DNA of 64,000 nucleotides. Origin: Heptranchias perlo. Taxonomy: Eukaryota. A model generated the notes under the pieces. It saw nothing but the letters and a program-made list of their open reading frames with translations, was not told the origin of the DNA and ran no database searches. This document shows positions 13,175 through 63,800 of the stretch, in pieces. The first letter of the stretch is position 1. Each line of letters begins with the position of its first letter. The stretch lies in NCBI RefSeq assembly GCF_035084215.1, contig NC_090369.1:1674001-1738000 (forward strand), read 5' to 3'. Made by a program: the position numbers and the translations under genes.

Positions 13175-16100
13175 TCACCTATTGTATATTTTTGTAATCA
13201 TGTACAGAGTTATCACTATCCCAATAACTGCTGCAACAATTCCAACAGCACAGACAATGGTCCCAGAGTAGGGTATCAGAGGTGGCTGATCTGTTTAAAA
13301 ATCAGGAAAGCAAATTTATTCTTTGTTTCTGTAGCAGGTTTTCATTGATCATTACAATTAGAAAGATTTGCATCTGTACAGCACCGTAGAAAGGTCTGAA
13401 AGCGCTTCACATACAATGAATTACTTTGAAGCAGTGACTGTTGTTATGTCGGCAAACAGGGTAGCCATTTTGCACAGCAAACAGTAATGAGATGAGTGAC
13501 GAGTCAGTCTGTCTTTGGTGGTGGTGGTTGAGGGAAGAATGTTAGCCAGGATACCGGGAGAACTCTCTGCTCTGAGTTTTAGAATCTTCAACAGACAGGG
13601 CCTTGACTTAATGTCTCATCTAAAGGATGGCACCTCCAATGATGCAGCACTGCCTCAGTACTGCAGTGACGTGGGACTTGAACCAGAGGTGAGAGTGCTA
13701 CAAATGCACCAAACTGACACACTGATTCTGTAAGCTTTGACAATATTTTTATGATTAATAGATGAAAACCCAGATGGATTGTGCAGTTTTAGTGTGCTAC
13801 CCTCACTGGGTGAAGTGCGGTGGGATACATGGCTGCAGCAGTTCACCCTGATTAAACAGGCCTAAATCATACCAGGAGCTGTATAATGTGTGCCGTGCTT
13901 GACCCGGAAGTACTTGCTCCAAATCTAAACACCGAACGTAATGTAGAATTAATTTTATCATCTCCTGTTGATGGTTTTGATTTTCTTTTTATTTTACCAA
14001 CTTGAATATACTTGTTTTTTTAAACTCCCTTTCTCCCCACCCCCCTCCCCCGGCCTCCTCTCCCCTCCGAAGGTGCTGGCTCTTGTCACAGGGGTCCCCG
14101 GGAGTGTGTCAGTATTTACAGGGGGTCCCCAGGAGTGCGTCAAGATTTACAGGGGTCTCTGGGAGTGTGTAAGTATTTACAACGGTCCCCAAGAGAAAAG
14201 TTTGAAAAGCTCTGGTGTAGAAAGCTGCTCCTGTGTATTTTTCTTGTTACCCTTTAAATGTAGTTAACAGTCACTTAATGCATAACATACCCAACAAAAC
14301 AGTTAGTGGTTGATCGAGACTGATATGAGCTGCTTGGCAGCTGTAGGTGTCTCCATCTTGTGGCTCAATCCTGATGTACTTTAAGATGTTAAATGTCCAG
14401 TCTGCCTCAACCACTAGTTGCGATGATTGAACCGGCCCCGTGAATCGCCTCCCATTGATCAGGAAGTTGATATCAATTTCGAAAGGGTAGAACTTTTCTG
14501 CGTAACAGTACAGGGTGTTCGGGTGATGTGGTGTATAGTTTTCCTCAGTGTAGATGTGAATGGATGGCTTTTCTGTAACAGAAATAACACAGGTAATTGT
14601 AACAACAACTTGTACTTTTATAGTGTTTTCACACAACAAAGCATTCCCTAGTTTTGCAGGGGTCTGGGGGACCTGGGCAGGAAGTGGGAGAGGAATTAGG
14701 GGAACTGACCAGAATTGCAGTTAAAGAGGTACATTTATGAAGCCTTTTGAAATTGGGGAGAGAAGTAGCAAAGTGACAGGTTTAAGAAGAGAATCTCATG
14801 GTACAGAGGTGTGGTGGATGAAGGCTCTGCCACTGATGCAGGAGCAGAGGTTTTGTACCACATTGATAAGTCCAACATTGCAACAACTTCGCCCACTCTG
14901 ACCTCTATTGGCTTCCCCTCCCCTAGTATAAGACTGTTAGTATATCATTAGCAGAGCTCCTGTGCCATTGCTGATGGTGAGTCAGAGGACGTGCTCAACT
15001 CCAATGTGTAAAATGTGATGGCTACGATTGCGACAAGAAGTTAATATATTATAAATGTGCGTCTGTATATATTCGATCTCCCATGGGGAGTGAAGACCAA
15101 GTGTAGTCTTCGGGTGAAGTGGGGTTAGCGGGTGGGGGATAATTGGACCAGGGTGCACAGACATAAGATTTTTTAATAAGATATCGGTATATATATTTAT
15201 TCAGTAGCCTTTTTAAAGTTATACATTGTTATTTTTATATAATACTTTGATTTTATATAATTCTTTATAGTTAAATACTAAAACTGACGTCAATTTTGGG
15301 AATTGGAGAAGCAGAGTTGGTTGGTGCCGAGGAATCTCTGCAGTCCAGGTTGAAGAGCTGGGAGATGCCAAACTGAGCCACTACAGCACCACCATTGGCA
15401 GTATGATGTAATTACAGTGTGACATGTTTACATAAGCAGTACCCATTATAAATGTGGACACAGGAATTAATATTGAAAAGTTGACTCAAAGTCTGACATA
15501 AACCTGACAATGAGAAGTAAGGTTTGTAGACTGGAAGCGTGCACAGATTTAAGGTTATTAGCATATCATGGATATATTCATCCCATATTCCCAGGATTCA
15601 AGAGGGTGGGCACAAGGCTCTGTTCGACTGTCCTGATTTTCCTCCCATCTGCTGGAAAATGCTGTTACATACTGTAGATTTGTTAAATTTCAAAATATAC
15701 TTTATTTCATAAAATTTAAGGATACACAGTTCCATGTAAATTCACAATTACAATTCAAACAATACAATACAGATCGTACACACTCCGATCCCATCATTAC
15801 AATTCAAAACACAGTACATATCTTCTAATATATACTGTACAATACAAAGTGGAATAACCTCACACAGTGGCTTTCCCCATATAGCCTTTGCGTAGGCCAC
15901 ACCTCGCTTCAGTGAGTCCCGCAGCACGTACTCCTGGAACTTGGAGTGTGCCAGTCTACAACCTCTGCTCATCACCTCCCCACCGAACATGGCTCAGCTT
16001 GGGATCCAAACAGGATAAGACTTGAACCCAGGTTTTTAAAATTATAAATGAACGACTTACTTTTGAGGACACTTGTACCGTTTGTCAGCTTTGTAATTTC

Positions 16101-18364
16101 TTTGGTGATGCCTTGCTGCCATGCCAGGATCCCACTTGCCCTCTCTTTAAAATGAATCACTTCTTCCTGACCCAGTTCTGCTATTCCGTCTGTCACATTT
16201 CCATTTATAACAAACGTGTGCATCTTGTAATCGTAGAATAGAAAGGGTGAAGTATTTACATCGAAGATGTGTCCGTTTGTTTCTGAATCCGAAGTGTAAC
16301 TGTAGTACAGCCTTTCAGAGATAGATTTAAATTCTAGGGAGGGAAAACAGCAGACAAATCACAAAGAAATTAAACATTTGCATTGATATTGCACCTTATC
16401 ATGTCTCTCCAAAACATCGCTAAGGGCTTCACATACAAATAATTGCTGCAAAGTGCAGTCCCTGTTATGTAAATTAACAAGGCAGCCATTTTGTATACTG
16501 CAATGAGCTGAACAAGCCGTTAATCTGTTTTTTGGTGGTGTTGCTTGAGGGAAGAATTTTGACCAAGACACAAGGAGAACTTCCTGCTCTTCTAATAGTG
16601 CCATGGTATCTTTAACATCCACCTGAACAGGTAGATGAGGCCTGGGTTTAACATCTCATCTGGCAGGTCTGACGGTGCAGCAACCCTTCAGTACTGGAGT
16701 GTCAGTTTAGATTGGGGACTCCAGTTAGGGATTGGGGCTCAGCCCAAAAACCTCTGACTCAGAGGTGAGAGTAATACCAAGTGAGCCAAGCTGAAAACAT
16801 AGCATCATGGAATCATACAACTCAGAAGGAGGCCAGGTAGCCCATTGTGACTGTGTGAGCTCTGAAAGCTATCCAATTAGTCCCAATCCCCTGCTCTTTC
16901 CCCATACCCATAGACCTGCAAATTTTTCCTTTTCAAGTACATATCCAAATCCCTTTTGAAAGTTACTACTGAATCTGCTTCTACCGTTCTTTCAGGCAGT
17001 GCATTCCAGATCAGAACAATTCTCTGCGGGGAAAAAAAAATTCTCCTCATCTTCCCCCTGGTTCTTTTGCCAATTATCTTAAATCTGTGTGCTCCAGTTA
17101 CCGACCCTCCTGCCAGTGGAAACAGTTTCTCCTTATTTACACTATCAAAACCCCTCAGAATTTTGAACGTCTCTATTAAATCTCCTCTTAACCTTCTCTG
17201 CTCTGAGGAGAACAACTCCAGCTTCTCCAGTCTCTCCACGTAAACTGGAGTCCCTCATACCTGATATCATTCTAGTAAATCTCCTCAGCACCCTCTCCAA
17301 GACCTAGACATCCTTCCTAAAGTGTGGTGCCCAGAATTGGACACAAACTAAAGCTGAGACATAACCAGTGTTTTATAAACATTTCCACACTGAAGGGTCA
17401 GAAGTAACATCATGACTGATAACCCTATATAGAAGGAGTTTTGAGGAACAGTATATCATGTACATAAAACCAGTTTAGAATATTATGGAGTAAATGTTAC
17501 AATTTAGTAATCCTAGCCCAAAGCTTTGTGCGAGGGGAATGATTATCGAGGATTTGTGTGTGGAGGTCAGTGCCTCCACTCATGACAGGCAAAATTCCCT
17601 GTCCATCAATTTTAATCTTGTAAGATACACCGTGGAAAATCATGTGGATCAGAAATCACGTGCACTGAACTCTGCGCTCAAATTCCCAATGTGTGCCCCT
17701 GTCACATGAAGCTCTGCACCGGAGGCACTCAATTGTACAATTTATCCTCTATAGGTATGAGGCATCACTGAGAGACTGAAACATTCAATGTCTAATGTCA
17801 GATCAACGTACTGCAAGTCTGATCATCAATAAAGAACAATTGAACAAAATTAGAAGGTTAGATCAAATTTTCTAAAGAACCATGACGATATTTTCTGCTG
17901 TTAGTTTTAATAAATTCAGAAACGTTAACTCTTAAGCTCGCAATCATAAGGCGATAGCCCTTGGATGCTGAATTCTACTGCTCTTCCTTAGTGATATATT
18001 AAACAGATAAGGTTATAAAGCTAGATTTTTCATTTCCATTTATTTCAACCCACCCACTGCCTTTCAAAGTTAAAATAAATTAGAGAATCTCTGAGCGGAG
18101 ACTTTCATCCCATCGGTCAGGGCTGGATTGAAACCCAGGTCCCTGAGGTGAAAGCAAACAGCACTGCCTCAACTTTGATTTTGTAAAATGATGCTCCCCA
18201 GAGATGGGACTAGAGCACTACAAGACCAATTCTGTGACACAAGCTCCCACGTAGAGTGGAGGTCACAAACCACCCCTATGTGTCCACACAATACACTCAC
18301 CAATCTCTGCTCTTGTTACTGTTGTAAGTGACAACATGATTATTAGGAACCCACAGAGTTCCAT
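13175..18364 (-). CDS. WA: MHC W-category alpha chain (WA-1): class II alpha-like chain with beta2-microglobulin-like alpha2 domain, about 244 aa
   Basis: Exons: leader 18364-18301 ([21 protein letters not shown]); alpha1 16333-16061 (91 codons, [13 protein letters not shown]...[10 protein letters not shown]); alpha2 C1-Ig 14572-14291 ([26 protein letters not shown]); TM 13290-13179 ([18 protein letters not shown]). The first three introns are phase-1 GT-AG. The frame ends at TGA 13177-13175 on read-through, or splices to a possible mini-exon at 12999-12978. Confidence 0.85.
13368..13725 (-). mobile_element. Deu-domain tRNA-SINE (AmnSINE/SacSINE1-like)
   Basis: Reverse complement of the element at 28820-29260. 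Confidence 0.7.
15690..15990 (-). mobile_element. L1/Tx1-like LINE 3' end
   Basis: [26 protein letters not shown]-terminus followed by a TG-rich UTR and AATAAA-like end. Confidence 0.55.
16375..16795 (-). mobile_element. Deu-domain tRNA-SINE
   Basis: tRNA-like head CAGCTTGGCTCAC and Deu core on the minus strand. Confidence 0.7.
16805..17380 (-). mobile_element. CR1 LINE 3' fragment
   Basis: ORF 16877..17239: [27 protein letters not shown]. Confidence 0.9.
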
Positions 18365-19913
18365 GTTGGTAAATGACTTCTTGTTTCTCCAGCAGCTCTT
18401 GGAGTACGTGAATAGAGTCCTTCTGTTCACAAGTATAACTCAGCACATTGGCCGACGCAGTTTCAAACCATCTACTTTCTGTTCCAGTGATGTAAATCAA
18501 TCTGACCATCCTAACACCTTATTGGATGTTCATTTCTCAATCCCTGTCATTTTGGCAGCACAAATTACAATCCTAATTCATCTGTCACTTGGCATCGGTT
18601 CAATGTGAGAAACCAGTCATTCAGGAAACAGTGAGTTTAAATACATTGGGGAGATTTTAACTGTCAGAAGAATGAAGTCCTGCTGATTTTAATCACTGAG
18701 CCTCATTAATATATCGCCAGCCAACTTCCAGCCCAGAAAGGGGGGGGATGTGGGTGGGAAGCCTGTGGAAATTCCATCCACCGGCACTTATGTAACTTTG
18801 GGGACCAGGAACCTGGGGCCAGTGGGTGTGGGTCTTGCAGTACGGAAGGTGAGTGGGGGGAGTCCGGAATAGGGGTGGCCAAAACTTTCCTTGAGGAGCA
18901 CAGAGAAGAACTCCAGCCATTTCTCGTGGCCTGTTAGAGTGAGATTGCCAATTTGTGGCGAATTTTGTGGGCAGTTTTGTGTTGTGGAATCAAACCCACT
19001 AGGGACTGGGTTGGGACTGCTGTAGTTGGCAGAAAGACAGACATGCAGAGAGGTACAAAAAAACCTTCATTTCCACGGTCTCGGCAGGATTTGAATCCAG
19101 TTTTCAGAGAGGCTGTAACATCATTCTGATGAAATAACACAAAAGTTCCCTATCTTTCCAAACACTTTATTTTAAACCTTTTTTTTGGTGAGCTGGGTGT
19201 CTGAGAAATCTATCCCCATGTTGAAGAACCTCCAAATGGAGCTACTGAGAAATCTAGATCTCCACTTTCTGTGGCTGAGACAGAGTGCATACTCGCTGTA
19301 GGGATACACCCCACTTGCCCAAGTTTGGAGAGTTCAACCAGCCAAAACTGCTTCTCCCCACAGAGCACTGCTGATCTTCCCTTCCATGTCTAGGGAGGAA
19401 CACCCCACCAGTTGGGGGCATCTACCTGCAGGTTCGCCTAGAGCCCATTGGGAAGAATCCCAGCAGCCAGTGATAGGTCTACCCCTCCAGTCCTCATTAA
19501 TGAGCCTGACTGGTGGGTCAGTCAACAACAGTGTCCTGGAATAGTTAAGGACCTGCCTGGCTCAGATATCTGATTAATCAATCTCCCACAGAAGGTTGAC
19601 TCCAATGTTCCATTACCAGGCATGATATCTCGGAGCCAACTTGATCCCAAAGAGACTCCACTAATGGCTCCCACACCAAGAAGACAGTTACATAATGGCC
19701 ATCGGGCAACTGACAAGTGTGAATTTAAGCCCTCACTAGGCAGACAGTGGTACCAGGAGCTCCTCAGCAGTGGGCTGTTGAACAGAACTCATCATAAAAT
19801 GTAACCCAGGATAGACGCACACCACACCTCAGCAAAGGGTGTCCCACCAGTCACTTTTTATGATGACACTATCCCTTTAATAGAAACTATCCCTTTAATG
19901 TGAAAAGCACAAG

Positions 19914-19977
19914 GAAAAGGAAACAACTTAATTGTCTGTCAAAGTGCAGTTACCAGAATAACCACAGATGTAATTGG
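19914..19977 (+). promoter_or_regulatory. Candidate ISRE, RFX X-box and ATTGG module upstream of WB-1
   Basis: GAAAAGGAAAC (19914-19924), GTTACCAGAATAAC (19949-19962) and ATTGG (19973-19977), 175-240 bp upstream of ATG 20151; the X-Y spacing is not canonical. Confidence 0.3.
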
Positions 19978-20150
19978 AATCTCCAATCTTGTGGTTTTTT
20001 TATTCTCGAAGCTTTAGTGGGTGGAGTCAGGAGACTCAATGGAAGTGTTTGTATGTAAGGAATTTAAAGCAAGTCTTACCGGACTCATCACTTCAATTAT
20101 ACACACCTTTAATCCAGACTTGTTAGAAAATCCATCGCCTTCCTTTCAAG

Positions 20151-23100
20151 ATGCAAGTTTTCTACAGATGGACGTTTGTGGCTGTCGTTGCTGCAGTTGT
20201 TTGTGTTGTGGACGGTTGGAGCGGTAAGTGGGTTATTACCCTCACTCACTTTTAACATTCTACCTGACTGCTAAGTGGAAGACAGTGCATATCTGAATCT
20301 GTGTTTTATACATGGATTGCTCACTGAAAAACTCCCAGTGCTAGCTGCAAGGAATACTTAGGTATACAAAGAATCAGGGGTGAGAGGATTTAGTTATGAG
20401 GAAGGTGAGAGAAACTGGGGTTCTTTTCATTGGAATAAAGATGGTCTACAGGTTGTTCAAAGTTTATGGGGGTTTTGATGAAGTACATCAGTTTAAACTA
20501 TTTCCACTGGTCAGTGATGCAGTACATGGAGGGTTGTTAGGACATAGAATGCCCTACCAGAAACAGTGGTGGAATCAGAATAGCATTTAAAAGGGAAGTG
20601 AGTAACTATATGAAGGAGGAAAATCAAAAGTGTATGGGGAAAGAACAGGGGAATGGGACAAAGGGAAGACTTCTTTCAGAGAGCGGGGACAGGGCTGAAT
20701 GGCCTCCTTCTGTGCTGTAAAATTCTATAATTCTGTGATTCTACAACTGTTGGAAATCTGAACTAAAAACTGGAAATACGTGACAGGTGTGTCAGCATTT
20801 GAGAGAGAAAGACAGATCAGTGTTTTAAGTGGAAAGCCTTCTTCAGAACATCAAGAGGAGAGGAGAATAGGTAGAAGTTACGAGTACAGATATACTACTA
20901 AGAGGCAGCTAATGGGTTTAATACCCTGCAGGCAGATTCGTTCCAGTAGCGGACGAATGCTGCAGACTCTACTTTGTAATGTCCTTGTTCGTCAGCTGAA
21001 ATTTTCCCAATCTTTTATTGAGAAGACCTCTTCCTTCAGGCCCCATTGTCTTCACCTTCCATCCAACCAGCCTCTACCAGATCAGCTTGGATCGCTGCCG
21101 CACATGCCCAATGGGATGAATGGTCTCCTTCTGCACTGTAATTTCTATAATCCACCTGTTGATCCCTACTTTAAGGAACACGAACTTCCTCCCCCTCCCT
21201 TTGCTGAAAAACGAGCAGTGCTATTATTATCTCTCTGACCGTCAATCCTTTCTAAAAGTGCCAAGTGACTCCCGAATCAACTCCCTTCTCTGGGGTCTGT
21301 TCCACATCCACTATCCTGAGGGGTTGCTCTATATTCTGTAGGTAGAACTGAAATTCCAACCACAGTTTTCTGCTTCCTTACTAGCCTGGAGCTGATGACC
21401 CACCTCCGACAAGCTAAAGGGTAATGCTTATTGAGCAAAACACCTATAAACCATGCCCAAACATCACAAAAAAACAGTCTTCAAATGTTGTCAGCTTGGC
21501 TCAGTTGGTTTCATCCTCCCTTGACTCAGAAGGTCATGGGTTCAAGCCCCCCTCAAGAGAAAGGCACATAATCCAGGCTGACACTCTAGTGCAGTACTGA
21601 GAGAGTGCAGCACTGCCAGAGGTGCCATCCTTCTGATGAGACGTTAACCTGAAGCCCTGTCTGCCTGTTCAGGTGGATGTTAAAGATCACACGGTATTAT
21701 AGGAAGAGGAGCAGGGAATTCTCCTGGCCAACATTCCCTCTTCAACCAACACGCTAAACAGATAAACCGGTTATTCATCTCATTGCTGTTTGTGAAACTC
21801 ACTGTCATATCTGCCTATACAACAGCAGTCCGAGTATTTCATTGTATTTTAAATGTTCTGAGGCGTTTGCGAGATGTGCTGGAGCTTTCTCTAAAGTAAT
21901 TGATTTAAACGTCATCTAATGTGGGTGGCCAACTGGCCTCTACTGAGCCCCATGCTGATCTTCTGTGGCTGAAGTGTAGCCCTTTGTTGAGAGCCCAACT
22001 TCTAAATCCTGATTATATGAGATGAAGAATAACACAAAGGACCTGGTCAGCTGCAATGAATCTGGCAGCCTTCACCCAAACAAATTTTGAATTAATTGTA
22101 ATGTAATCTCATTAATTTTGGTCCAAGTGCACCACCATATCCATTGGGGACCTTTTGCATGTCCTCAGTTCTGAAACAACTGGTCTGGAGCCTGACAAAG
22201 AACCAAAGTGCAGCAACACCAGTGCTACTGTAAGCTTGGGTTTATGAGGCAAAGAACCACTGCTGGTAACTGTATCAGGGAAGGAAATAGGCAAGGAGAG
22301 CAGTAAGGAGAAAGAAAGGGAATAAGAGACGAGGAGAGGAGAAATCGGGAGACAGAGAGATAAAGAGGAAAAAAAGAGAGAATGAGAGCAGATGAATTTT
22401 GCAAGTACCACAATGACTGGCTCAGTAAGACCTCAGGATGTGCCTAACATCAATTAGCCTCTAACTGACCCTAGGATGTGCCTAACAGCAGTTACATTTT
22501 GTGGCCTTAAAGGGACAGGAGAACTTGAACATAATGCCACCTTGGCAGCAGAATACTACCCTGTGCATTACATGGTATAACATTCCTGTTGTATCATCAG
22601 ACTTGCCATAGGCATTGCCACAGGAGATCCATACCATCAATAAACAAAATGCTCAGGTCAGATCCTGACACAAGGTCTGGATAGCAGAATGAGCTGACTG
22701 TCCTTTTATATCTCCTCCATTCTTATGTTCTGTTGTGTTTTTCTTTCAGATATGCACCTGTTTCACGTGCAGTGCGAATGCATCTATCATGACCTTGAAC
22801 TGGCTGATATGTCTCTGCGATATGCTTACGATGGTAGTACTATTATGTACTACGATATGAGTATTAAAAGATATGTTGCAGCTCAGTCTGTTGCACAAGC
22901 TGAAGTGGACAGGCGGAACTCAGAACCAGATTACGTTGTGTCTGTTCCTCGCCGAATTGAGAGTGTCTGCGATGAAATTAAACAAACAGCTATATCGAGC
23001 AACACCACCCTGGAAAAAATGGGTAAGATACTTTATAAAAACAGCAACTTACATAATGTAACAAAATGTCCCAAGGCACTTCACACAGTGGGGGCAGGGG

Positions 23101-26100
23101 GCGGAATTAGACACCGCACAGGGAGTGGGAAGGAGATATGGGCTGAAGAAGCAGGTTTTAGGGAGAGTTATATCAAGGCAGGGGGTTTGGCAAGAAAATC
23201 CCAGAAAGCAAGTTTGTGATGGTGGAGGGGAGGACACACAGCAGTCCAGGCTCAGAGGAGTCAGCTGGGCCGTGGCGTTGCAGGAGCTTGGTGAGGTAGG
23301 GTAGAGTGTCGAGTGTGGCCTTGGAAAGATTTACATGGGTTATGGGTTCAAAGTTTGATAGTAATAAATTGCTCAATTGCAGCCAACAGACAGAGGAGAC
23401 GTTCATCCCCTCAATCTGGAGCTGGATTCAAACCCAGGGTGGAAGGATGGTGATTGAACGACTGCACCATCAGTTCACACCAAGTCAGGCTCTGAGCTTT
23501 TCAACAGTGCAAACTATAACCCTCAGTCCATTCTTCTCTGTTTTTACAGCTCCTACATTTACTAGAGCCTTTGTTCAGAAGAAAGCAGGTCAGAATTATT
23601 TGGTGTGTTTGGTGAAGAACTTCTTCCCCAGTGACATTAAATTGAGCTGGGTCAGAAACAGGGCCGTCACTGTCAACGGACCGGTGACAACTAGCATTGT
23701 ACCTCAAAGAGACAGGACGTTTCAAGTGAAAAGTATCCTCCTGTTGAATGAAGATGCTGATGGTTCATACTCCTGTCAAGTGGAACACGAGACCATCAAT
23801 GGGAAACTCATGGTACCTCTAGGTAAGGTTAGCTACTCAGGAAAGCTCAGACAGGTCAAAGCCATTCGACCCAACCAACCCATCCTGTTCTCATAAAGTT
23901 CAAACCTGCCTGCTCACCATATCCCTCACTCCCTCCTCTCTCCTGAAACACATCCAATCACCTTGTGACCCCACCCATTATGTCTGCTGTGATATTTGTC
24001 CCTGCTAACTTATTCCACAATTTGATTCCCCTTTGGGTGAAACCATTCCTCCTGACTTGCTATTTTTAGCTTGTGTTTAACTAAGGACCTTGTGCTTTTC
24101 TGTCCAATTAAACAAACTGTGAGGTCTGTATTAGTGGAAACTCAATATCCCCTATAGTGGAGGCGTCTCCCCAATCAGTAATGGAAACTGACAAAGAATC
24201 CATTTCCTTCACTGTCTCTCACACACTTCTACCGTATCCTCCAACTCACTGTCAGCAATGCCATGGGCCATTTACTGGTGAGTAATGTTCAGGTAGCTTT
24301 TATATTTACGTAACTGGATGTGGAGCATGTGGGGGGAATGTCTTGTTGTTAGATTAAAAACACAAAGTAAACTGGCCATCACAAGACTCCCAACTGTCCT
24401 TTCCACAGAATGGAACGGGAATACTGAAAATGAAGCTTTGATCATCATCGGAGCCGTGCTGGGGATACTGGGAATAAGCTCTGCTGTGGTGACTGGGATT
24501 CTGTACCACTGTGTCTTAAATCGTAAGCTATTACACCAATTACAAACTATTGTTAATGTTCCAGATTAAATTGGGAGCCCAAATATTTTGATCTACTTCC
24601 ATACATTTGGTGTGTTTAAAAATGTTTGTATGGGGGGTTTCAGTTTGTAAAGAGAACTATGAATATGATTGATTAAAGCAGGACAAGGAATGTGCTAACG
24701 GAAGAAAATGGTCAGAGTTGGACATGTAGAACCATAGAAAAGATACAGCACAGAAGGGGGCTATTCGACCCATCGTGTCCGCGCAGGCTTGAAGAACAAC
24801 CAGGTGCCCATTCTAATCCCACCTTCCAGCACCCGGTCCGTAGCCCTGCAGCTAACAGCACTTTAGGTGCAGGTCCAGGTACTTTTTAAAAGAGTTGAGG
24901 GTCCCTGCCTCTACCACCAATTCGGGCAGCGAATTCCGTACACCCACCACCTTCTGAATAAAAAGGTTTTTCCTCATGTCCCCTCTAATCCTTCCGCCAA
25001 TCAGCTTAAATCTATGTCCTCTAGTTCTTGAACTCTCCACTAGGGGAAACAGGTACTTCCCGTCTATCTAGGCCCCTCATAATTTTGTACACCTCAATCA
25101 AGTCTTCCCTCAGCCTCCTCTGCTCCAAGGAAAACAACCCCAGCCTATCCAATCTCCTTGCAGCTGCAATTTTCAAGCCCTGGCAACATTCTTGAAAATC
25201 TTCTCTGCACTCTCTCCAGAGCAATTACATCCTTCCTGTAATGTGGTGATCAGAACTGCACACAATACTCCAGCGTTTTATACAGTTCCATCATTGCATC
25301 CCTGCTTTTGTATTCTATACCTCGGCTAATAACGGAGAGCATTCCGTATGCCTTCTTCACAACCTTATCTACCTGTACTGCCACCTTCAGGGACCTGTGC
25401 ACATGCACTCCAAGGTGTCTCACTTCCTCTACCCCTCTCAATATATTCCCATTTACTGCGTATTCCCTTTTACTGTTTGCCCTCCCTAAGTGCATTACCT
25501 CACACTTCACCGGGTTGAACTCTATTTGCCACTTTTCCGCCCACTCCACCAACCCATTGATATCTTCTTGGAGTCTACAGCTATCCTCTTCACTATCAAC
25601 TACAAATTTGCAAATTTGCCAATCATGCCCCTACATTCAAGTCCAAATCATTAATATATACCACAATGTCCGTGTATATATCAGAGCACCTCATGTTAAT
25701 GGGACCATTGGAGAAAAGAGAAAATAAAAGGAGTCTTTAAAGTGATAAACTTTGAAATTACAGTTTGAGATATTTTATGGTGCAAAAGCTTAACCAGTTT
25801 GTACAATAATCCTTGTCCACTGTTTTAATGAAGGTGTTTTAAAATGAACCAGTCAACAGCACTGTTAAATAACAGGCAGAGGAATATCATATAAATATTG
25901 TAAATGGTCATCTAGGCCATTGAGTGGATAGAGAGGACAGAGAGGCAGTGAGAGAAAGAGCAAGTGGGTAGACATGTACACAGAGAAAGAGAGAGCATGT
26001 GTGTGTGAGAGAAAGGGGAGCAGAGGAAGAGACAGAAAACCCAGGTGAAATAAAATAGAAAGTGGGAGGGTGCATTTAGATATATATCACTTACAGGGGT

Positions 26101-26940
26101 TGACGTCAAACTGTTAACCTTTCTGTTTCTTATACAGGTTGCAAGCAATTCAATATTAAATCAACAGGTGAGATAAACTGTCCTTTACTCTGAATAATTT
26201 TGGCCTTAAGAATATTTTGCTGGGGGGGGGGAATATTAAACACGGTAGTACAATTTGGTGATTTTCTCTTTCTAGCAAAGTTCACTAATCAGAAAGGACG
26301 ATGTCAATCCAATCCATGCACAGCCAGCATGCGATCCAGTACCTCAAACACCTCTAATTCCAGCAGTTCTTCAGGTAACAGCAATTTTGTAACCCGGTCA
26401 ACTCAAACAGATCAACTCCAACTATTCTTCTCAGCAATGCGATCTAACCCAGGAATAGCTTGATCCCTCATCCCCACTGTCTCACAGACCAGGAAGGTCT
26501 CTCGTTTCATCCCTGGGCCTGTGCTGAGATAGGAGTGCTACAATTGGCCTCAGTGCCCAGGCCTGAGGAGGGGGATGGTGGGGGAGGTCTATAAACATTC
26601 CTGTTCCTGGCCTCTATCCGGTGATTCCTGCCAGAAGGAGCATGTGTGACGACCACCCCACCAACTGTTGACAATCACTGTCAAGAGTCACACGTGACAA
26701 ATGACTCCTAGTGTGGGGCACCAGAGGGAGCAGTGACTCTGGAACTGTACTTAAACAAGGAGGCATCATCAGGAGGGGAGGGGAGGGAAGAGGATGGTGA
26801 GAGAAAAAACATTCTTTGTGTGTCTGAGCATTTTGAAGTAACTGTTTCCTGGTTTGCAAACCAGGACAGGTTCTGAACAAATAAACTTACATTTCGTTAT
26901 CTTCTTTTCAGCTGACGGTTTGACTAAATCCTCTGCATAA
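20151..26940 (+). CDS. WB: MHC W-category beta chain (WB-1): class II beta-like chain with class I alpha2/alpha3 motifs, about 296 aa
   Basis: Exons: leader 20151-20223 (MQVFYRWTFVAVVAAVVCVVDGWS); beta1 22750-23022 (HLFHVQCEC..RYAYDG..SVCDE); beta2 23550-23822 (YLVC..FFP..SW..IVPQRDRTFQ..YSCQVEH); TM 24409-24522 (IIIGAVLGILGISSAVVTG); cytoplasmic 26138-26167, 26276-26374 and 26912-26940 (ADGLTKSSA*). All introns are phase-1 GT-AG. Confidence 0.88.
20380..20740 (+). mobile_element. Old CR1 3' fragment
   Basis: Degenerate match to the CR1 RT C-terminus and 3'UTR (GAATGGCCTCCTTCTGTGCTG). Confidence 0.6.
21488..21885 (+). mobile_element. Deu-domain tRNA-SINE
   Basis: GTCAGCTTGGCTCAGTTGG (A box), GGTTCAAGCCC (B box), then GCTGACACT..GCAGTACTGA core. 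Confidence 0.75.
24727..25663 (-). mobile_element. CR1 LINE 3' fragment in a WB-1 intron
   Basis: ORFs 25250..25552, 25021..25224 and 24852..25040 are CR1 RT C-terminal pieces. Confidence 0.9.
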
Positions 26941-27184
26941 GGTAAAAGTTCTGTCAAATATATTCAGTGATGTTTGTAACTGGGAGAAGTGCCTCTAATG
27001 TCGGTGTGCGATTCATGGGTCACCTGAACAGGTAGAAGGACACAGATCTTTTCTGGGCAATTAGTTGAATAAAACCTCAAAAGGATTTAGTACAGCACCT
27101 TCCTGTATTTAATAATGTCACTATCGATGCAATAATTCAATCTTGAGTTATTTGCCATGAATTTCCCAAAGCAACGTTACTGTG

Positions 27185-29260: not shown

Positions 29261-31133
29261 ACATTCTTTGCAGAAGGCTTACTGTTTAGTCTCACACATG
29301 AAGAATGGCTACTTGGATGATGCACCGAACCCCAGCAAGACGTAGCAGGTTTGGTGGGTTTGGGTGGGGGGGTAGGGAGAGAAGTCTTGGCAAACTATTT
29401 GACCATGGGAGTCGTCACAACCAAGCTACGAGATGAAGGGCAACTCATACCTGAGGGGAGGGGAGGGATGGGAAATTACACACCTACCAACACCTACAGC
29501 AAACTGGAGTTCATTCAACCCCCCAAAAGGGGATTTCTGTTCAACCAGGAATCGGTTATAATTAAACATAGTACACAGCTCAGAAATAAACATGTCATGA
29601 AGCTCCCACGTAACTCTCATTCCTTGAGCAGGTACTAATAGCTTCGCAGCGTTTAACCCTCCCTGTTCTGGATTCTTCTCACAATTTAAGTAAGATTAGA
29701 ATCCTCGGCCCTGCAACCACACTGTGGAAAAATAACACTGAACACTTAACGGCCGGTGCAGCAGACCTCCAAAAACGTCATCTCAAAAAGGCAGAGAACA
29801 TCCGCTACCCTCTGCTCAGGCTATCCTTTGTGGCACCACAGGGCTGGTTAATGCAGCACCAAGCTGTGAGCTGTGGTCAATGGGATGGCTCAGGCAGGGG
29901 TCCACTGGGTTCTACCACTGACCCAGCACACAATGTAGTGAGTGAGGATCGAATGGAACAGACATGACCTGACAGGGAGCCAGCTGGCAAACTCCCAATT
30001 AAACAGGGCCTCCCCTTCAGTGGTGCTCGGGCGTTCCAGTCACGTTATGGGGAAGTGCCCCCCCCAATTTAAATCATTCTTTGGCTTTATCTGCAGAGTG
30101 TGGGTACAAGCTCCCAGTCCTACAGGCTGGACAGCCACACTTTGGCACGGTGATCATCTCGGGAGTGTTGGAGGCCATTGGCCTCTGCCCCTGATAATAC
30201 AGGGAGAGAGCGGCCGTAGTCACGTCGTCGGCTCCCCGCGTAGCAGACACATAACACGGGATCGATCGATGCACTACATCAAGGCCGGGAATTACCGAGG
30301 AGCTGCTGCCGCTCTGCCGACATAGCTTCAATGGAAGTGTTCGGCGGAAATCCTGTTTACTTGCTGTAAACAGGAGTCTCTGCCGCGCATCCGGTGATGT
30401 AACGGCGGCGGTGCTGAGGAGGTTTCCAGCCCAAGTATCAGTCGCAAAAACACAGAATGGATCAACAACTTGCATTTATATAGCGTCTTTTAATATACAA
30501 GATGTTCCAAGCTGCTTTACAAAGGAATAGGGAGAACAGCATGCTGCACTACATCGCGTGTAAGACACATGGGATGGACCAATACACGACAGACACCTGC
30601 CCAAAGGCCTGACAGAGGTTTCAGGCGTGGAAAGAAAATGGTGGACAAAGAAAAATAAATGAAAGGGGAGATGTAACCATAAAGAAACAGGAGGTAGAAC
30701 AGAGTCACACTCGAAATACAACAAAATGACTTGTTCAGACTGTTAGACCCCGCCACATTTTAGTGGCAGTGCGTCGTCAATCACAATAAGGGTTAAACAT
30801 TTCCCATGTGTTTCTCCAGTTAGCACAGCTTGGAGCAGCCCGGGTTAGATAAACTCATCAGCTCAGGGGCTTCTCCCTGCAGCCTCTTGTCGCTCAGTCT
30901 CTGAAGGGATTGGCCATACTTGGGGTCCGTCGCTCAGGCTGAATCTCAGTTAAACAGGAGGCGCTCTTTCGAAGGCAAGTGGTTTCATCTTGGAATTCTT
31001 GCAGCAACAAAGATCAGATTCAATCTGGCCAGAGAGGATGAAGGGGAAAATGAAGGAGATGAAGACGGTGGTCACCTGGTCTCCCAAGTATTGGCGGGTG
31101 TTCAGAATTTGATGTTTCCTTAAAAATGAACGT

Positions 31134-47433: not shown

Positions 47434-49206
47434 AAAACGAATTCACTGACTCTAACTTTGTGCAATATTTGCTGGCGGTCTGTGACTGTTGCTCTCTCTC
47501 AGGCTATTGGACACAAATCTGTGTGCCATTGCTTTCTTTCCTGTCCCATTGCATTGATTTCAAGATCATCTTCCTCACTTTGAGATTTCTTGCCCCGTCT
47601 ATCAGAGCCATACAGCCCCACATGTGCCCTCTGACTCCTGTTTACTCTTTGTTCCTGCCTCATCTGTTCCGCCGTTGGCAGTTACACTTTTGGCCCCTGC
47701 TCTCCTGATCTCTCAATCTCCCTACCTCGCTCGGCCGTGCCGCCTCCCTCCCTGCTTTTCAGAAGCCTTCTTAAAACCCTTCGCTTTGATACCCCCAACC
47801 CTCTCCATTTTCCCTAATTTTGCTTCTTGCAAAGTGCTGTGTGATGTTTTTCTGTACGTGAGTGCCATTAAAATGGTTGTAAATTAAATAATGTGAAACA
47901 AAAAGCGAAATACTGCAGATGTTGGAAATCTAAAGCAAAAGACAGGCAATGATGGAAATACTCAGCAGGTCAGGCAGCATCTGTGAAGAGCGGAAGGTAG
48001 AGTTCATCGACCTGAAATGTTAACCCTACATTCCTCGCTCCACAGATGCTGCCTGACCTTCTGGGGGAGTTTTTAATTAAATCATGTACTTGATCCTATC
48101 TCGGCTGGGTCTATAGCTTGAGAGATGTTGAAAATGGGTTGTACATCATTTGCAGGGTTAATTTTTTTTAAAAGTTAAAAACTTGATGTATCTTCACTCT
48201 TCAATAGTGACAGAAAATCTGTTAAATAGCAGCAAATGCGAGGAGCTGCCAGAACGCCAACAAAGGTACTGGCACAGGCACGATGGGCGAATGGCCTCCT
48301 TTTGTGCTGTATCATTCTTTAAGGGTAGTGGATTACAATTTAACTAAACATTTAACCCTTGGTAGCACTGGTTACCAGCAACCATTATTCACTAATGATA
48401 AATCTGTCTCTGAAGTTGAGACACTGAATTGTCCCTGGACCAGCACTTTCTGCTGCAATTCATACCAAATCTGTCTCCTTCAAAGTTCAGCCAATGCATC
48501 TCAACTCCGTGGGATCCAAGTGCCTTTTATAACCAAACTTTCCTGCTTCTACCAATGGTAAACCTGAATTTCATTCCATCCTGTGCAAGTCTTTAAAGAA
48601 AGGAAGACTTGCATTTATTTAGCACTTAGCAGGTCTGTCACAAGCATCCCAAAGAACTTCACGTACTTTGCAGTGCAATGGCTATTATTTAGGCAAGCAT
48701 GGCAGCCATTTTGCCTACAGTAAGATCCCATAAGTGGCAATAAGATGACCAGTTAATTTATTTTTTGGTGGTGGTGTTAGTTGAGGGATGTTGGCCAGGA
48801 CACCTGGAGAATTGCCTGGTTGTCCAATAGTGCCACAGGATCTTTAACATCCACCTGAACAACCAGGCCTGGCCTTCGTTTAACATCTCATCCGAAAGGT
48901 GGTGCCTCTGATAATGCAGCATCCTCTCAGTATGGTGGTTATCTTACCTTATAGCATTCATTTTCCAAGGACGAGCTGTGATCCTGGAAGTGGAGGTTTG
49001 CTTTTACACTACATCACGTTAAGTTCAGAAAAGTGTTGCTGTAATTGTGAAATATACATGTGATCATTCTGTTGTTTACCTCTGAACGTGTAGTTAAATA
49101 AAGCAATTAGGGCATTGAATTGTGTCTTGCTCAGCTCTTGATATCTCTGAGATTGTGAAGAATTAACTGATGCATTTATATTGTGCGGTATCACATCCTC
49201 AGGAAG

Positions 49207-55720: not shown

Positions 55721-58700
55721 TTATCCAACATGTTTTGTCAAGCCATCTCCTGAAATACAGAATAAAACTTAAAGTCAACACGTAGACAGGGGCTCTGAGC
55801 TGCTACATTCTCATAGAAGTCAATATGTCTACACATTAATATACAACGGGATATCTACTATCCACTATAATGGAGGGGACACCCACCCCCGGCCCTCGAT
55901 GTTACAATGGAAATTGGCAGATAATTGAGAGTCGGCAAATTTTGGTCTTGCGTGTACTGTATAGCAATCTCCTTGGCATGAGAACGATGACAAGTACAAT
56001 ACATAGGAACAGGAGGAGGCCATTCAGCCCCTCCAGCCTGTTCTGCCATTCTATTAGATCATGGCTCACCTGTACCTTAACTCCATCTACACGCCTTGGT
56101 TCCGTAACCCTTACAATAACAGAAGCTGAATCGACTCTTTCTTGGACAGAAGGAGATTGAGGTTATCATGGTTGTGCAAGGAGACGATGTATTGCACAGT
56201 CTTTGTCTTGCAAAAACTCTGATAGATAATCAGGAAAGTGCGTGAAATAGAGATTCTGCTGTCTTCACAGGCAAGGTTGGGTTACTGCAAAGGCCCTGCT
56301 GGTCTCCTTTCATCCCAAACCCTTAACTCTCTGACCTGGAAGAAGAGACACTGCCAGCTCTGCCAGCTTACACTGGGCAACTAAGTGCGAAGCTCATGAA
56401 GGGCAGAGTTTCGGTACCAAGGACAGCTCCTTGCCCGCAAACCATTCTCTTTTCAGTATAACTTGATATCACCTCCAGGTTCCCCTCCAAGTCACATACC
56501 ATCCCAACTTGGACATACATCAGCCGTTCCTTCATCATCGTTGGGTCAAAATCCTGGAACTCCCCAGATAACAGCACTGTGAGAGCATCTCCACCACACG
56601 GACTGCAGCGGTTCAAGAAGGCGGCTCACCACCACCTTCTCAAGGGACAACTAGGGACGGGCAATAAATGCCGGCCTCGCCAGCAACGCCCATGTCCCAA
56701 GAATGAATTTTTAAGAATTTAGTTGGAAATGCTGGTTACAGTCCATAATAAAGCAGATTGTACCTGGTCAGTGGAGAGAATGGACCTGATAGAGTCCATG
56801 CTTCTCTTTGTAAGACCAATACAACCTGCACTAACACTAGTCTGTAACATTGTAAATGACCACTGTGCATAACTTTTATGATTAAATAAATAAATAAGAG
56901 TTAATTTTACAAATTTGCACTGTTTTCCTTATCTGAATTCCCAATAGATGCTCCTCTCGGGCAAAGCTCTGCGCTGGGAGCCCTCATTCATGAAGTCCAA
57001 CACAACACCTCGATGCCAGTACGATGCCACGCTTGTGACTGTTTTTGTCTCGTGCCAGGGAAGCTGTTACCTGAATTTGCGCTAGAGGCGGAGGCGTTCG
57101 ATTGCATGCTGACTTGACTCCGGTTCGACTTTCGTTGTTGTTGGTCTTTTATGAAAACCACTGAGAAGCAGAAGAGGTTAACAGCTCGCTGTAAGTACAT
57201 GTCTGGTTCTCCCAACCCACCCATATCAATGCGAAACTGCCCGCAGTGAATATTATGTATTTGTCTTACCTGTTGGTGTGGTGATACGGGACTGGCAGCC
57301 TGAACGGGACATAAATCAGAATTAAAACCTTGAAGTTTACAACAAGTGCACTGAATTGATGACACTAGGCTTATGGAAGTCCCTCTACGATCACTGCTTC
57401 CAGTGATCAGAGCGTTCAGAGAATGTCTGCGCTACGATAAAATGTGGGATTTACGTCCATAGATGCCAACAGCCCTCACCAACGTGGTCACTCTTCAATG
57501 ATGGCTATTTGGCAGCGGGGAGGCATTACGGCCAAGCCTGACCCTTTCCTTATAGATGTGCCCCTTTCAGCAGTGATCACTGGGCAGCAATGATGAACAA
57601 GAGATCTGGCTGATTTAGCGCCTTCCCCAGCTCAAGAGGCCACCCCATGCTGTCACCCCAGAATAGATCAGTGAACCATCTGGTGCAGACGATTCAGTTA
57701 CACGCCATATGTTGGATTTATCCACTGAGGCATTGGGGAGGCACTAAAGCTTTATTTACTTCAAGTCTTCAAAACTTCCAACATTTTGTTTTGAAAAGGA
57801 AGAAAGACTTGCATTTATATAGTGCCTTTCACGACCTCAGGACGTCCCAAAGCACTTTACAGCCAATCAAATACTTTTGAGGTGTGGCCACTGTTGTAAT
57901 GTAGGAAACGCAGCAGCCAATTTGTGCACAGCCAGATCCCACAATCAGCAATGTGATAAATGACCAGGTCATCTGGTTTTGCTTTGGTGATATTGGTTGA
58001 GGGATAAATATTGGCCAGGACACTAGGGAGAATTAGTGCCATGGGATCTTTTACATCTACCTGAGAGGGCAGATGGGGCCTCGGTTTAATGTCTCAACCG
58101 AAAGACGGCACCTCCGACAGTGCAGGACTCCCTCAGTACTGCACTGGAGTGTCAGCCTGGATTCTGAAGAGTGGTTAGTGCATCTAGGTAGGTACCGTAT
58201 AACATTAATCAGAGTGGTCTCCTTGACTAGTTTTGATCGCGTATAAGGGGTCGGAGAGGAACCTTCCAGATTTTTTTCCCTAATTGGCCTGGGTTTTTAA
58301 ATCTGTTTTCTCGCCTTTCGATCACATGACTTTCGGGTGGGGAGTGTATACATTGTGATGCACAAGGAACAGGCTGGATGGATCAGTGGGTCTTTTCCTG
58401 TCAGTCACTGTTCGTATCTAAACATGTGACAGCACTGAGCACATGCACTAAACATATTTCATGAATAATTTTTTGAGTCTTATGTGATTTGCAATTCACA
58501 AACATGCTGAGAGGTTATAACTATCTGGAAAAGACTGAACAGGCTGGGGCTCTTTTCTCTAGAAAAATGAAGGCTGAGGGGTGACCTGATAGAGGTCTTT
58601 AAAATTGTGAAGGTGTTCGATAGGGTAGACGTAGAGATGATGTTTCCATTTGTGGTGGAGACCAAAACTAGGGGCCATAAATATCTCAGAGAGTGGGCAG

Positions 58701-61700: not shown

Positions 61701-63800
61701 GAGAATGTACCCAGAGCGTACCCGCACCATCTCCTCTTTAAAGGCTGCCTATTGGTCGATCACTGTTTTGCCTGCCAATCTTTGATTCCAATTTAGCCAG
61801 GCCAGATCCTTTCTCAACCCATTGAAATTGGCCCTCCTCCAATTAAGTATTTTTACTCTAGATTGCTCCTTGTCCTTTTCCATAACTAATCTAAACCTAA
61901 TGATACTATGATCGCTGTTCTCTAAATGTTCCCTCACTGACACTTACTCCACTTGACCCACCTCATTCCCCAGAACTAGATCCAGCAATCCAGATGCATT
62001 TAAGGGGAAGCTAGGTAAGTACATGAGGGAGAAAGGAATAGAAGGATATGCTGATAGGGTGAGATGGAGTAAGAACATAAGAACATAAGAAATAGGAGCA
62101 GGAGTAGGCCAATCGGCCCCTCGAGCCTGCTCCGCCATTCAATAAGATCATGGCTGACCTGATCCTAACCTCAAATCTAAATTCATGTCCAATTTCCTGC
62201 CCGCTCCCCGTAACCCCTAATTCCCTTTACTTCTAGGAAACTGTCGATTTCTGTTTTAAATTTATTTAATGATGTAGCTTCCACAGCTTCCTGGGGCAGC
62301 AAATTCCACAGACCTACTACCCTCTGAGTGAAGAAGTTTCTCCTCATCTCAGTTTTGAAAGAGCAGCCCCTTATTCTAAGATTATGCCCCCTAGTTCTAG
62401 TTTCACCCATCCTTGGGAACATCCTTACCGCATCCACCTGATCAAGCCCCTTCACAATCTTATATGTTTCAATAAGATCGCCTCTCATTCTTCTGAACTC
62501 CAATGAGTAGAGTCCCAATCTACTCAACCTCTCCTCATATGTTCGCCCCCTCATCCCCGGGATTAACCGAGTGAACCTTCTTTGTACTGCCTCGAGAGCA
62601 AGTATGTCTTTTCTTAAGTATGGAGACCAAAACTGTATGCAGTATTCCAGGTGCGGTCTCACCAATACCTTATATAACTGCAGCAATACCTCCCTGTTTT
62701 TATATTCTATCCCCCTAGCAATAAAAGCCAACATTCCGTTGGCCTTCTTGATCACCTGCTGCACCTGCATACTAACTTTTTGATTTTCTTGCACTCGGAC
62801 CCCCCAGATCCCTTTGTACTGCAGTACTTTCCAGTTTGTCGCCATTAAGATAATAACTTGCTCTCTGATTTTTCCTGCCAAAGTGCATTTTCCAATATTG
62901 TATTGTATCTGCCAAATCTCCGCCCACTCACCCAGCCTGTCTATATCCCCCTGTAGGTTTTTTATGTCCTCCTCACTCTCCACTTTCCCTCCCATCTTTG
63001 TATCATCTGCAAACTTTGATATGTTACACTCGGTCCCCTCCTCTAAATCGTTAATATAGATTGTAAAGAGTTGGGGACCCAGCACCGACCCCTGCGGAAC
63101 ACCACTGGCTACTGGTTGCCAGTCCGAGAATGAACCATTTATCCCAACTCTCTGCTTCCTGTTAGATAACCAATCCTCCACCCATGCCAGAATATTACCC
63201 CCAATCCAGTGATTCTTTATCTTGAGCAATAATCTTCTATGTGGCACCTTGTCGAATGCCTTCTGGAAGTCTAAATACACTACGTCCACTGGTTCCCCTT
63301 TATGCACCCTGTACGTTATGTCCTCAAAGAACTCAAGCAAATTTGTCAGACATGACTTCCCCTTCGTAAAGCCATGCTGACTTTGTCCTATTAAATTATG
63401 TTTATCCAAATGTTCCGCTACTGTCTCCTTAATAATAGACTCCAAAATTTTACCCACCACAGATGTTAGGCTAACTGGTCTATAATTTCCAGTAGGTTGG
63501 GAGGAGGCTCATGTGGAGCATAAACACCGGCATAGATCAGTTGGGCCGAATGGCCCGTTTCTGTGCTGTAAATTCTATGTAATCTATGCTGAAACTTACA
63601 AAGGATAGCACATGTCAGATCTTGGATTTAACACGGACAATGGCCCTTGAAATGAACAGAACATATTTACAAATGTTGAGTACTGTTACCATGATGCTTC
63701 CCACGAATGATGCCTCCGGCCACAGCAGTGACGATTCCGGCTATTCCAATCAGTATCCCAATAATGGCCCCAGCGGTGAGTGAATTCTTACTTTGGTGGT
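55721..63800 (-). CDS. WB: MHC W-category beta chain (WB-3), 3' part only (TM and cytoplasmic exons); the 5' exons lie beyond the window
   Basis: TM exon 63800-63690 (HQSKNSLTAGAIIGILIGIAGIVTAVAGGIIRGKHH) is homologous to the WB-2 TM; exons 57299-57270 (GCQSRITTPT), 57160-57071 (VVFIKDQQQRKSNRSQVSMQSNASASSANS) and 55749-55721 (GDGLTKHVG*) parallel WB-1 exons 5-7 in phase and closely in size. Confidence 0.75.
56455..56712 (+). mobile_element. LINE/SINE 3'-tail fragment (HE1/CR1-related)
   Basis: GGGTCAAAATCCTGGAACTCCC...GGGCAATAAATGCCGGCC tail; family assignment is from memory. Confidence 0.45.
58745..61988 (-). mobile_element. CR1 LINE ORF2 fragment, interrupted by a second CR1
   Basis: ORFs 58955..59587, 60559..60864, 60906..61196, 61233..61514 and 61749..61943 give continuous CR1 ORF2 once 59525-60608 is removed. 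Confidence 0.9.
59525..60608 (+). mobile_element. CR1 LINE 3' fragment nested in opposite orientation
   Basis: ORFs 59599..59817 (SGVPQGS.LGP.LF..KFADDTK) and 59784..60473. Confidence 0.92.
62071..63494 (-). mobile_element. Young CR1 LINE (425-aa RT ORF) with (TTCTTATG)n tail, inserted into an older plus-strand CR1 3'UTR (61990-63590)
   Basis: ORF 62183..63460; tail AAGAACATAAGAACATAAG; flanks read GATGGAGTA and AGTAGGTTGGGAGG, giving a short AGTA duplication. Confidence 0.92.

Follow-up and report, generated by a model that had tools for sequence, protein, structure and literature searches.

A four-pair cluster of W-category MHC genes in the shark Heptranchias perlo and its probably ancient groove lineage

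The W-category of major histocompatibility complex (MHC) genes has been proposed as an intermediate step from MHC class II to class I, and the closest described systems to the one reported here are the W genes of other sharks. A cluster of three W pairs was reported from the great white shark (Okamura et al. 2021, PMC8713811), and in elasmobranchs W genes were found to be multicopy, syntenic and located outside the MHC (Verissimo et al. 2023, PMC10751288). Here we describe genes that are almost certainly W-category MHC in a 64,000-nucleotide stretch of Heptranchias perlo DNA (assembly GCF_035084215.1, contig NC_090369.1, positions 1,674,001 to 1,738,000 of the forward strand), hereafter the window, in whose numbering coordinates are given, and in 100 kb searched on each side of it. 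The W family and multi-pair shark clusters are already published, and the cluster alone adds little. We therefore focus on one alpha/beta pair, WA1/WB1, whose groove domains very probably represent an ancient lineage carried on homogenised constant exons.

The gene order is WA0 WB0, WA1 WB1, WB2 WA2, WB3 WA3, with all four pairs arranged head to head. The strands in the window, WA1(-) WB1(+), WB2(-) WA2(+), WB3(-), are those given by a first-pass annotation of the same DNA, which had counted five genes as two pairs plus a third beta gene. As a view of the window this holds for WA1/WB1 and WB2/WA2, which are complete, but WB3 reaches into the window only with its transmembrane (TM) exon and three tail exons, beta1 and beta2 being situated past the end, and the cluster really has four pairs. 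Beyond the window end (window +65 to +85 kb) lie the remainder of WB3 and WA3, with which it pairs, and the fourth pair, WA0/WB0, precedes the window by about 3-20 kb. Matched by eye to Datasets S1-S3 of PMC8713811, WA0 and WA1 fall in subgroup DS5, WB0 and WB1 in Nds5, WB2 in DS1, WA2 in DS10, WB3 in DS3 and WA3 in Nds3. Identity between different subgroups is 16-26% in the distal domains and 30-50% in the immunoglobulin (Ig) domains.

The two DS5/Nds5 pairs differ most in their groove exons. WA0 and WA1 are identical in the leader (100%) and share 88% of alpha2 and 92% of TM residues, against 60% in alpha1 (WA1 exon 16061..16333, - strand), while WB0 and WB1 share 92% in beta2 and 97% in TM, against 66% in beta1 (WB1 exon 22750..23022, + strand). 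Between the duplicates, synonymous divergence reaches 0.25 and 0.32 for the groove exons, compared with 0-0.13 elsewhere. Pooled synonymous differences number 27 in 117 sites for the groove exons versus 10 in 213 elsewhere (p 1.6e-6), a count to which a WB leader row read in a frame shifted by one base contributes 1 difference and 15 sites. At the DNA level the two units form a mosaic of 80-98% identity, in which the 250 nt of intron before beta1 show 3 mismatches and 2 short gaps between WB0 and WB1, and dense differences begin inside the beta1 exon and run on into the next intron. Identity in the alpha1 flanks is 85-91% on the upstream side and 62-67% on the downstream side.

The WA1 and WB1 groove domains find their closest relatives in other sharks and in rays. 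Protein searches gave 22 WA-type and 24 WB-type sequences, every one named from sharks or rays, and two Mustelus WA proteins were added via clusters. In the alpha1 tree (22 rows, with the truncated P0002 and the partial P0016 dropped) WA1 grouped with Pristis, Mobula, Chiloscyllium, Scyliorhinus, Triakis and Mustelus in a seven-member clade with support of 100/100. The approximately unbiased (AU) test rejected monophyly of the Heptranchias copies (p-AU 1e-6), of Triakidae, of Scyliorhinus and of the batoids (0.003), and removing 4 long rows and the last 8 columns left the result unchanged. The alpha2+TM tree (23 rows) recovered five of five taxon groups as clades and rejected the seven-member groove clade. 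Likewise, the beta1 tree (22 of 24 rows, P0048 and P0049 having no beta1) placed WB1 with Pristis, Mobula, Chiloscyllium, Scyliorhinus and Mustelus in a six-member clade (100/99) with the same genera and branching as the alpha1 clade. In the beta2+TM tree (P0050 and P0051 dropped; TM columns masked for P0018, P0028 and part of P0045) all six taxon groups were clades and the six-member groove clade was rejected. WA1 alpha1 is 80% identical to its sawfish counterpart but only 60% to WA0, and WB1 beta1 is 77% identical to the sawfish versus 66% to WB0. The alpha and beta members of the lineage lie on equal-sized contigs in Pristis, Scyliorhinus, Chiloscyllium and Mustelus, and within the lineage beta1 is more conserved than beta2 in 15 of 15 species pairs.

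The WA1/WB1 groove type is very probably older than the shark-ray split, an event placed at up to about 393 million years ago by an estimate quoted in PMC8010645, and it survived repeated homogenisation. That survival suggests a fixed ligand or receptor. Younger estimates of the split exist, and concerted evolution that spares a binding exon is known for other MHC genes. For W genes, groove lineages across orders or homogenised constant exons were not found in the literature searched, which took in the main text of PMC8713811, its SI Appendix lying outside that search. The houndshark n1 and n4 rows in the datasets of that paper do show part of the split between groove and constant exons.

The residues that set the lineage apart include several groove positions. 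In alpha1 the lineage has His at position 24 in 7/7 members versus Asp in 14/15 others, along with His at 62 and Ile at 70. In beta1 it has Leu, Arg and Tyr at 114-116 in 6/6 members, where 13/14 others have Trp 114 and Asp 116, and it also has Glu in place of Lys at 166. Since His 24 and Tyr 116 replace two acidic Asp residues of the groove floor, the duplicates would bind chemically different ligands. Invariance within alpha1 is concentrated at groove positions (15/21 versus 25/61 others, p 0.015). In the predicted WB1 structure beta1 has four strands and two helices (block predicted local distance difference test, pLDDT, 72-92), and the model aligns over both domains to class I alpha2-alpha3 and to class II chains (Z 13-14.7, root-mean-square deviation, rmsd, 4-10). 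Foldseek matched the WA1 model to class II alpha chains at an rmsd of about 9. We also observed that Nds5 beta1 domains carry three invariant cysteines (C33, C35 and C98 of the WB1 model P0023; 22/22 aligned proteins), the additional one preceding the canonical cysteine by two residues and corresponding to groove position 99 by alignment to HLA.

On balance we lean towards the view that the W pairs function via a groove-bound ligand. The head-to-head gene pairs likely yield alpha/beta heterodimers at the cell surface, each pair presumably co-expressed from a shared promoter, with the chains predicted to pair through TM glycines and contacts like those of beta2-microglobulin (beta2m) involving W61, Y8 and P57. 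Pairing and surface expression have been demonstrated in print only for salamander W, and teleost W has a Z-like groove profile (PMC8713811). By this prediction, lymphocytes would recognise each heterodimer with a non-classical ligand, fixed and particular to that pair, seated in its groove. Gene conversion between the tandem DS5/Nds5 pairs may repeatedly have homogenised all but the groove exons, conversion tracts that reached those exons being removed by selection, and the retained combination of alpha1 and beta1 would then keep a conserved specificity, as in MR1 or teleost MHC-Z. In its fullest form, which we offer tentatively and rate well short of even, this would cast the shark W pairs as invariant heterodimers that present antigen and belong to one ancient family. 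The WA1/WB1 groove, inherited jointly since before the shark-ray split and shielded from conversion, would bind one conserved ligand class for an innate-like T cell and its near-identical neighbour another, and DS1/DS10 would be a heat- or stress-inducible ligand driven by an array of heat-shock elements (HSEs).

Several results weigh against this interpretation. Groove positions were mapped through the PMC8713811 alignment to HLA-A2 numbers, not through a model, using a general list of positions, and the WA1 model, with residues 1-51 of alpha1 at pLDDT <50, is too weak for groove mapping. Invariance in beta1 shows no significant enrichment at groove positions (11/21 versus 24/61 others, p 0.22), and lineage-diagnostic residues were not significantly enriched there in alpha1 (4/21 versus 5/61, p 0.17) or in beta1 (3/21 versus 2/61, p 0.10), several of them mapping to outward positions. 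Alpha1 is more conserved than alpha2 in only 8/15 species pairs, WA0/WB0 form no well-supported second lineage in either the alpha1 or the beta1 tree, and the trees of other species rest on proteins only. The transcript contigs come from four runs of a single sample. Finally, no ligand, receptor or structure for any W heterodimer was found in the W literature searched, and W functions are stated as unknown in PMC9586880.

The alternative that survives best, although we consider it doubtful, keeps the same genes and history but gives the heterodimers no groove ligand: they would mark self or stress, much as MICA, ULBP or HFE do, for a receptor that contacts the distal domains directly, with each retained alpha1/beta1 lineage matching one receptor and DS1/DS10 induced by stress through the array. 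It would account for diagnostic residues that are not confined to groove positions, for the absence from WA1/WB1 of all eight class I peptide-terminus anchors (0/8 by the PMC8713811 alignment, from a general anchor list) and for a WB2 beta1 domain that has no cysteine. However, the sharpest lineage differences fall at the beta1 floor (114 and 116) and at alpha1 24, 62 and 70.

The promoter evidence for such a marker is divided. A sequence scan found an array with a 10-bp period and about 57 units at 38441..39021, within 1 kb of CpG-rich DNA (60% GC, observed/expected ratio, o/e, 0.82) between the WB2 and WA2 start codons. It holds 8 perfect HSE-like triplets of alternating nGAAn units, none longer, with degenerate units between them. 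These are all of the perfect three-unit sites in 264 kb (shuffles gave a mean of 0.04 and a maximum of 2 in 1000), although a tandem repeat multiplies any motif in its unit. A 33-base pattern taken from the array had one match in the genome, and transcript contigs of WB2 and WA2 reach into or up to it. The MICA/B promoters contain HSEs bound by HSF1 (PMC7766243), and we regard the array as a possible HSF1-type stress promoter of WB2/WA2, a lead with less than an even chance. Against it, no HSE-like triplets occur at the other three pairs, and the nine perfect six-unit HSE-like sites of the genome belong, by eye, mostly to one dispersed repeat with common flanks, so the motif alone says little. 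These six-unit sites served as a positive control, and no heat-shock-protein frames were seen by eye near them among the open reading frames listed. Scans for the interferon-stimulated response element (ISRE), Y-box, gamma-activated sequence (GAS) and kB motifs gave short matches only, without a chance control, and were not used.

It is less probable still that the heterodimers have an intracellular role like that of DM and DO, chaperoning or editing the loading of classical MHC, their distal lineages matching different clients, though a class II-type layout without classical anchors fits DM/DO too. Cartilaginous fish lack DM (PMC8010645). However, salamander W reaches the surface with mature glycans (PMC8713811), and no tyrosine sorting motif was seen in the WB1 tail. 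Elasmobranch W genes also lie outside the MHC (PMC10751288), and the three of 150 flank frames scanned here that had a match hit OST-alpha, EXPERA and WD40 families, not MHC genes.

We think it improbable to a greater degree that the likeness of the groove domains to those of rays reflects convergence, or that the assembler set two alleles next to each other as WA0/WB0 and WA1/WB1; in either case selected retention would not follow. In places the DNA of the two units is 94-99% identical, and the comparison with other species was made by protein, not DNA. Yet no N gap separates the units, and several DS5/Nds5 proteins occur on equal-sized contigs in catshark, Mustelus, Pristiophorus or Heterodontus. 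Moreover, the two groove clades have identical branching that follows taxonomy, and their diagnostic residues include positions outside the groove.

That these are ordinary polymorphic classical class II genes, as their database labels say, is hardly credible: the two-chain layout, the NCBI names, the whole-chain match of WB1 to class II beta in the PDB and an AU test that does not reject WA alpha2 with IIA (p 0.22) speak for it, but alpha2 lacks W37 and has W61 in 4/4 chains, beta2 lacks W61 in 4/4, a separate IIA-like exon lies on another contig, and the chains are close to published WA/WB rows, with no match over cut-off to PF00993 or PF00969 in the four distal exons scanned.

The assignment to the W-category, made by the first-pass annotation, is supported by the published subgroup match, by Ig-domain residues and, less firmly, by the position of alpha2 in a tree of C1-set domains. 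With residue numbers following PMC8713811, the alpha2 domains have W61, Y8 and F/L37 in 4/4 chains and L55 and F57 in 3/4, WA1 having V57 as in most published DS5 rows. In beta2, P57 is present in 4/4 chains and G61 in 2/4. The beta1 domains have A32 (4/4), G35 (3/4) and Q6 (2/4) but not D37 (0/4), and published shark WB rows vary likewise, while alpha1 has V30 in 1/4 chains by eye and I in 2. In its own numbering the first-pass annotation had proposed G120, Q96 and D122 for the beta chains, found in 3/4, 2/4 and 0/4 (E in WB2), and F56 for the alpha chains, found in 3/4, with V in WA1. The glycine-patterned TM helices it described, read from the sequence, hold for the beta chains (GxxxG in 4/4) and for WA2 and WA3, which have all four alpha-chain glycines, whereas WA1 and WA0 keep 2/4. 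The class II peptide-backbone contacts N62, N69 and R76 of alpha1 are absent from WA1 (0/3 in Dataset S1 columns, from a general residue list). Nor is this the class I design of a three-domain heavy chain with soluble beta2m: in these genes splicing puts the beta2m-like exon in one transcript with alpha1 and TM exons.

All 60 PDB matches listed for WA2 alpha2 were beta2m or beta2m fusions, as were the best matches of WA1 alpha2. The C1 tree (28 rows, with one beta2m row, one IIA row and no class IIB row) united WA alpha2 with a beta2m-like exon (94/83) and left the IIA-like exon outside, the alternative grouping not being rejected (p-AU 0.22). A PF00969 search for class IIB in this genome gave no match, its control giving none either. 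The first-pass annotation had expected WA alpha2 to join beta2m, as it does in this tree, and WB beta2 to join class I alpha3, among which it is unresolved, the same as in PMC8713811. In the 3.25 Gb genome searched, exons that we label class I-like, IIA-like and beta2m-like from their residues are on other contigs, the separate beta2m-like exon on C736. At least 11 near-identical class I-like alpha3 exons also occur in tandem arrays on contig C1050 and four others, one of them with L at the Ig tryptophan position.

The exon structures of the four complete genes were confirmed by splicing, as the first-pass annotation had described them: each chain has a leader, a distal domain, a C1-set domain and a TM/cytoplasmic part, with phase 1 at the leader/distal, distal/Ig and Ig/TM junctions, GT-AG sites and an open frame ending in a single terminal stop (WA1 256 amino acids, WB1 296, WB2 289, WA2 276). 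WA1 (- strand, DS5 alpha chain) has its leader at 18301..18364, its beta2m-like alpha2 at 14291..14572 (Y8, F37, L55, W61; V57), its connecting peptide/TM exon at 13179..13290 and the coding part of its cytoplasmic exon, to the stop, at 13013..13052. The 1.8 kb between the WA1 and WB1 start codons (18365..20150) are CpG-poor (o/e 0.24) and may hold a shared promoter. WB1 (+ strand, Nds5 beta chain) follows with its leader at 20151..20223, beta2 at 23550..23822 (P57; R at 61, no W61), TM exon at 24409..24522 and three cytoplasmic exons at 26138..26942 (26138-26167, 26276-26374, 26912-26942). For both genes transcript contigs cover the leader, groove, Ig, TM and cytoplasmic exons, and the spliced products are identical to NCBI models.

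WB2 (- strand, DS1 beta chain) comprises the coding part of the leader (38274..38346), beta1 (37166..37423; Q6, A32, G35, E37), beta2 (35197..35475; P57, G61), a TM exon (33185..33289) and cytoplasmic exons within 31132..32092 (32012-32092, and from 31207 to a stop near 31133), with transcript contigs over all of these exons. Its start codon lies 1.0 kb from that of WA2 (+ strand, DS10 alpha chain), in which the coding part of the leader is at 39351..39438, alpha1 at 44491..44754 (consistent with a transcript contig gap size), the beta2m-like alpha2 at 45687..45968 (Y8, L37, L55, F57, W61) and the TM/cytoplasmic exon to the stop, with its four-glycine pattern intact, at 47237..47434. A 30-nt copy (97%) of part of this TM exon lies in the intron at 47038-47067, about 270 nt upstream of the original. 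WB3 (- strand, DS3 beta chain) has its TM exon at 63690..63800 and three predicted cytoplasmic exons within 55721..57299 (57270-57299, 57071-57160, 55721-55749), proposed from GT-AG ends, an open frame and likeness to the published DS3 tail. In the genome sequence its beta2 and beta1 exons follow at about 65.1-65.4 kb and 67.2-67.4 kb, 1-3.5 kb past the window end. No leader exon was located for WB3 or for WA3. The WB1 and WB3 tails (26276-26942; 55721-57160) have a serine-rich stretch and then a common DGLTK-type motif at the end, possibly for signalling or sorting, which is retained in most Nds5 proteins fetched and absent from WB2.

Transcript contigs support most of the junctions that the first-pass annotation proposed to check by RNA sequencing. 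The runs carry no RNA record and were treated as RNA because of their GT-AG joints, and contig depths were not used to rank genes. All junctions of WA1 (4/4), WB1 (6/6) and WB2 (5/5) were found, one 856-nt contig crossing the four WA1 exons listed with zero mismatches. For WA2 the evidence consists of gap sizes between aligned contig pieces, the joints themselves being absent from the rows listed: a 546-nt gap between pieces 38800-39437 and 47236-47982 equals alpha1 and alpha2 summed, and a 282-nt gap in a second contig equals the alpha2 exon. The WA2 leader was placed at 39351-39438 on the basis of these pieces and gaps, which take its 5' end to about 38800. Another leader candidate, at 43823-43898, offers an open phase-1 splice and was rejected because the transcript contigs back 39351-39438. 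One beta2 contig differs from WB1 at seven letters that all match WB0, indicating that WB0 is transcribed too.

Spliced WA1 and WB1 are letter for letter the NCBI Heptranchias perlo protein models P0003 and P0023, and WA0 and WB0 have models P0005 and P0024. The suspicion that automated annotation mislabels these genes was borne out: NCBI names WA1 and WB1 class II alpha-like and class II beta-like, and their homologues in other species ZAG-, HFE- or class I-like. Two NCBI isoforms, P0001 and P0002 (basking and great white shark), join DS10 alpha1-alpha2 to all or part of a DS5 alpha chain; the resulting alpha chains of three or four domains would be either read-through products or artefacts of annotation.

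Among 150 flank frames scanned (of 376 candidates) three had Pfam matches, to OST-alpha (L001:1903-2334), EXPERA/EBP (L003:9195-9503) and WD40 (L005:5855-6124), all in exons of upstream neighbours and none of them MHC genes. Many introns are filled with reverse transcriptase fragments like those of long interspersed nuclear elements. Minisatellites occur at 11882-12616 (63 bp x 11.7 copies) and 49207-52041 (35 bp x 81 copies), WA3 alpha1 is immediately preceded by a GC-rich tandem repeat, and a second long tandem repeat follows WB3 beta1.

The significance of the locus lies in a specific combination of alpha1 and beta1 that has been kept across sharks and rays while the other exons were homogenised in each lineage, a pattern that speaks for a conserved role in binding rather than for neutral relics. 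Two transcribed pairs with Ig domains 88-92% identical and different grooves provide a natural controlled experiment, and an ancient paired groove lineage makes the question of the W ligand directly testable. If true, the reading of these pairs as invariant presenters would offer a first way into the function of the intermediate proposed between class II and class I. More generally, the classification of W and shark MHC genes rests on trees of Ig domains, and such trees can obscure the lineages that are oldest.

Compared with the W genes of PMC8713811, the cluster has the same three subgroups (DS5/Nds5, DS1/DS10 and DS3/Nds3), head-to-head pairs, class II layout and beta2m-like alpha2. Both alpha1 and alpha2 of WA1 are very similar to the DS5-like rows given for spiny dogfish in that paper, and WA1 and WA0 alpha1 resemble houndshark n4 and n1, whose TM/tail rows are identical. 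Unlike the great white shark with its three pairs, Heptranchias has four, the DS5/Nds5 pair being duplicated, and it is a hexanchiform, an order absent from the shark rows of PMC8713811 that were compared. The W genes of PMC10751288 are likewise multicopy, with non-MHC neighbours and class I-, IIA- and beta2m-like exons on other contigs, whereas trees built domain by domain, as here, do not appear in the section of that paper on W genes.

Shark class II (Almeida et al. 2020, PMC8010645) also has very old lineages with lineage-specific alpha/beta pairs, but the pattern there is the reverse: its Ig domains are old and its peptide-binding domains cluster by order, whereas here the groove domains are old and Ig/TM cluster by taxon. 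The W groove lineage also takes in rays, unlike the class II lineages of that study. In the conservation of distal domains as much as or more than Ig domains, and in the lack of classical anchors, the W pairs would work like MR1, teleost MHC-Z (cited in PMC8713811) and CD1. In those systems a class I heavy chain associates with free beta2m and the ligand is known or has been modelled, whereas here there are two TM chains. The DS1/DS10 pair, and only that pair, is like MICA/MICB in having HSE-like promoter sites, although MICA/MICB are single-chain class I-like proteins with tested HSF1 control and the 580-bp array described here is a degenerate candidate.

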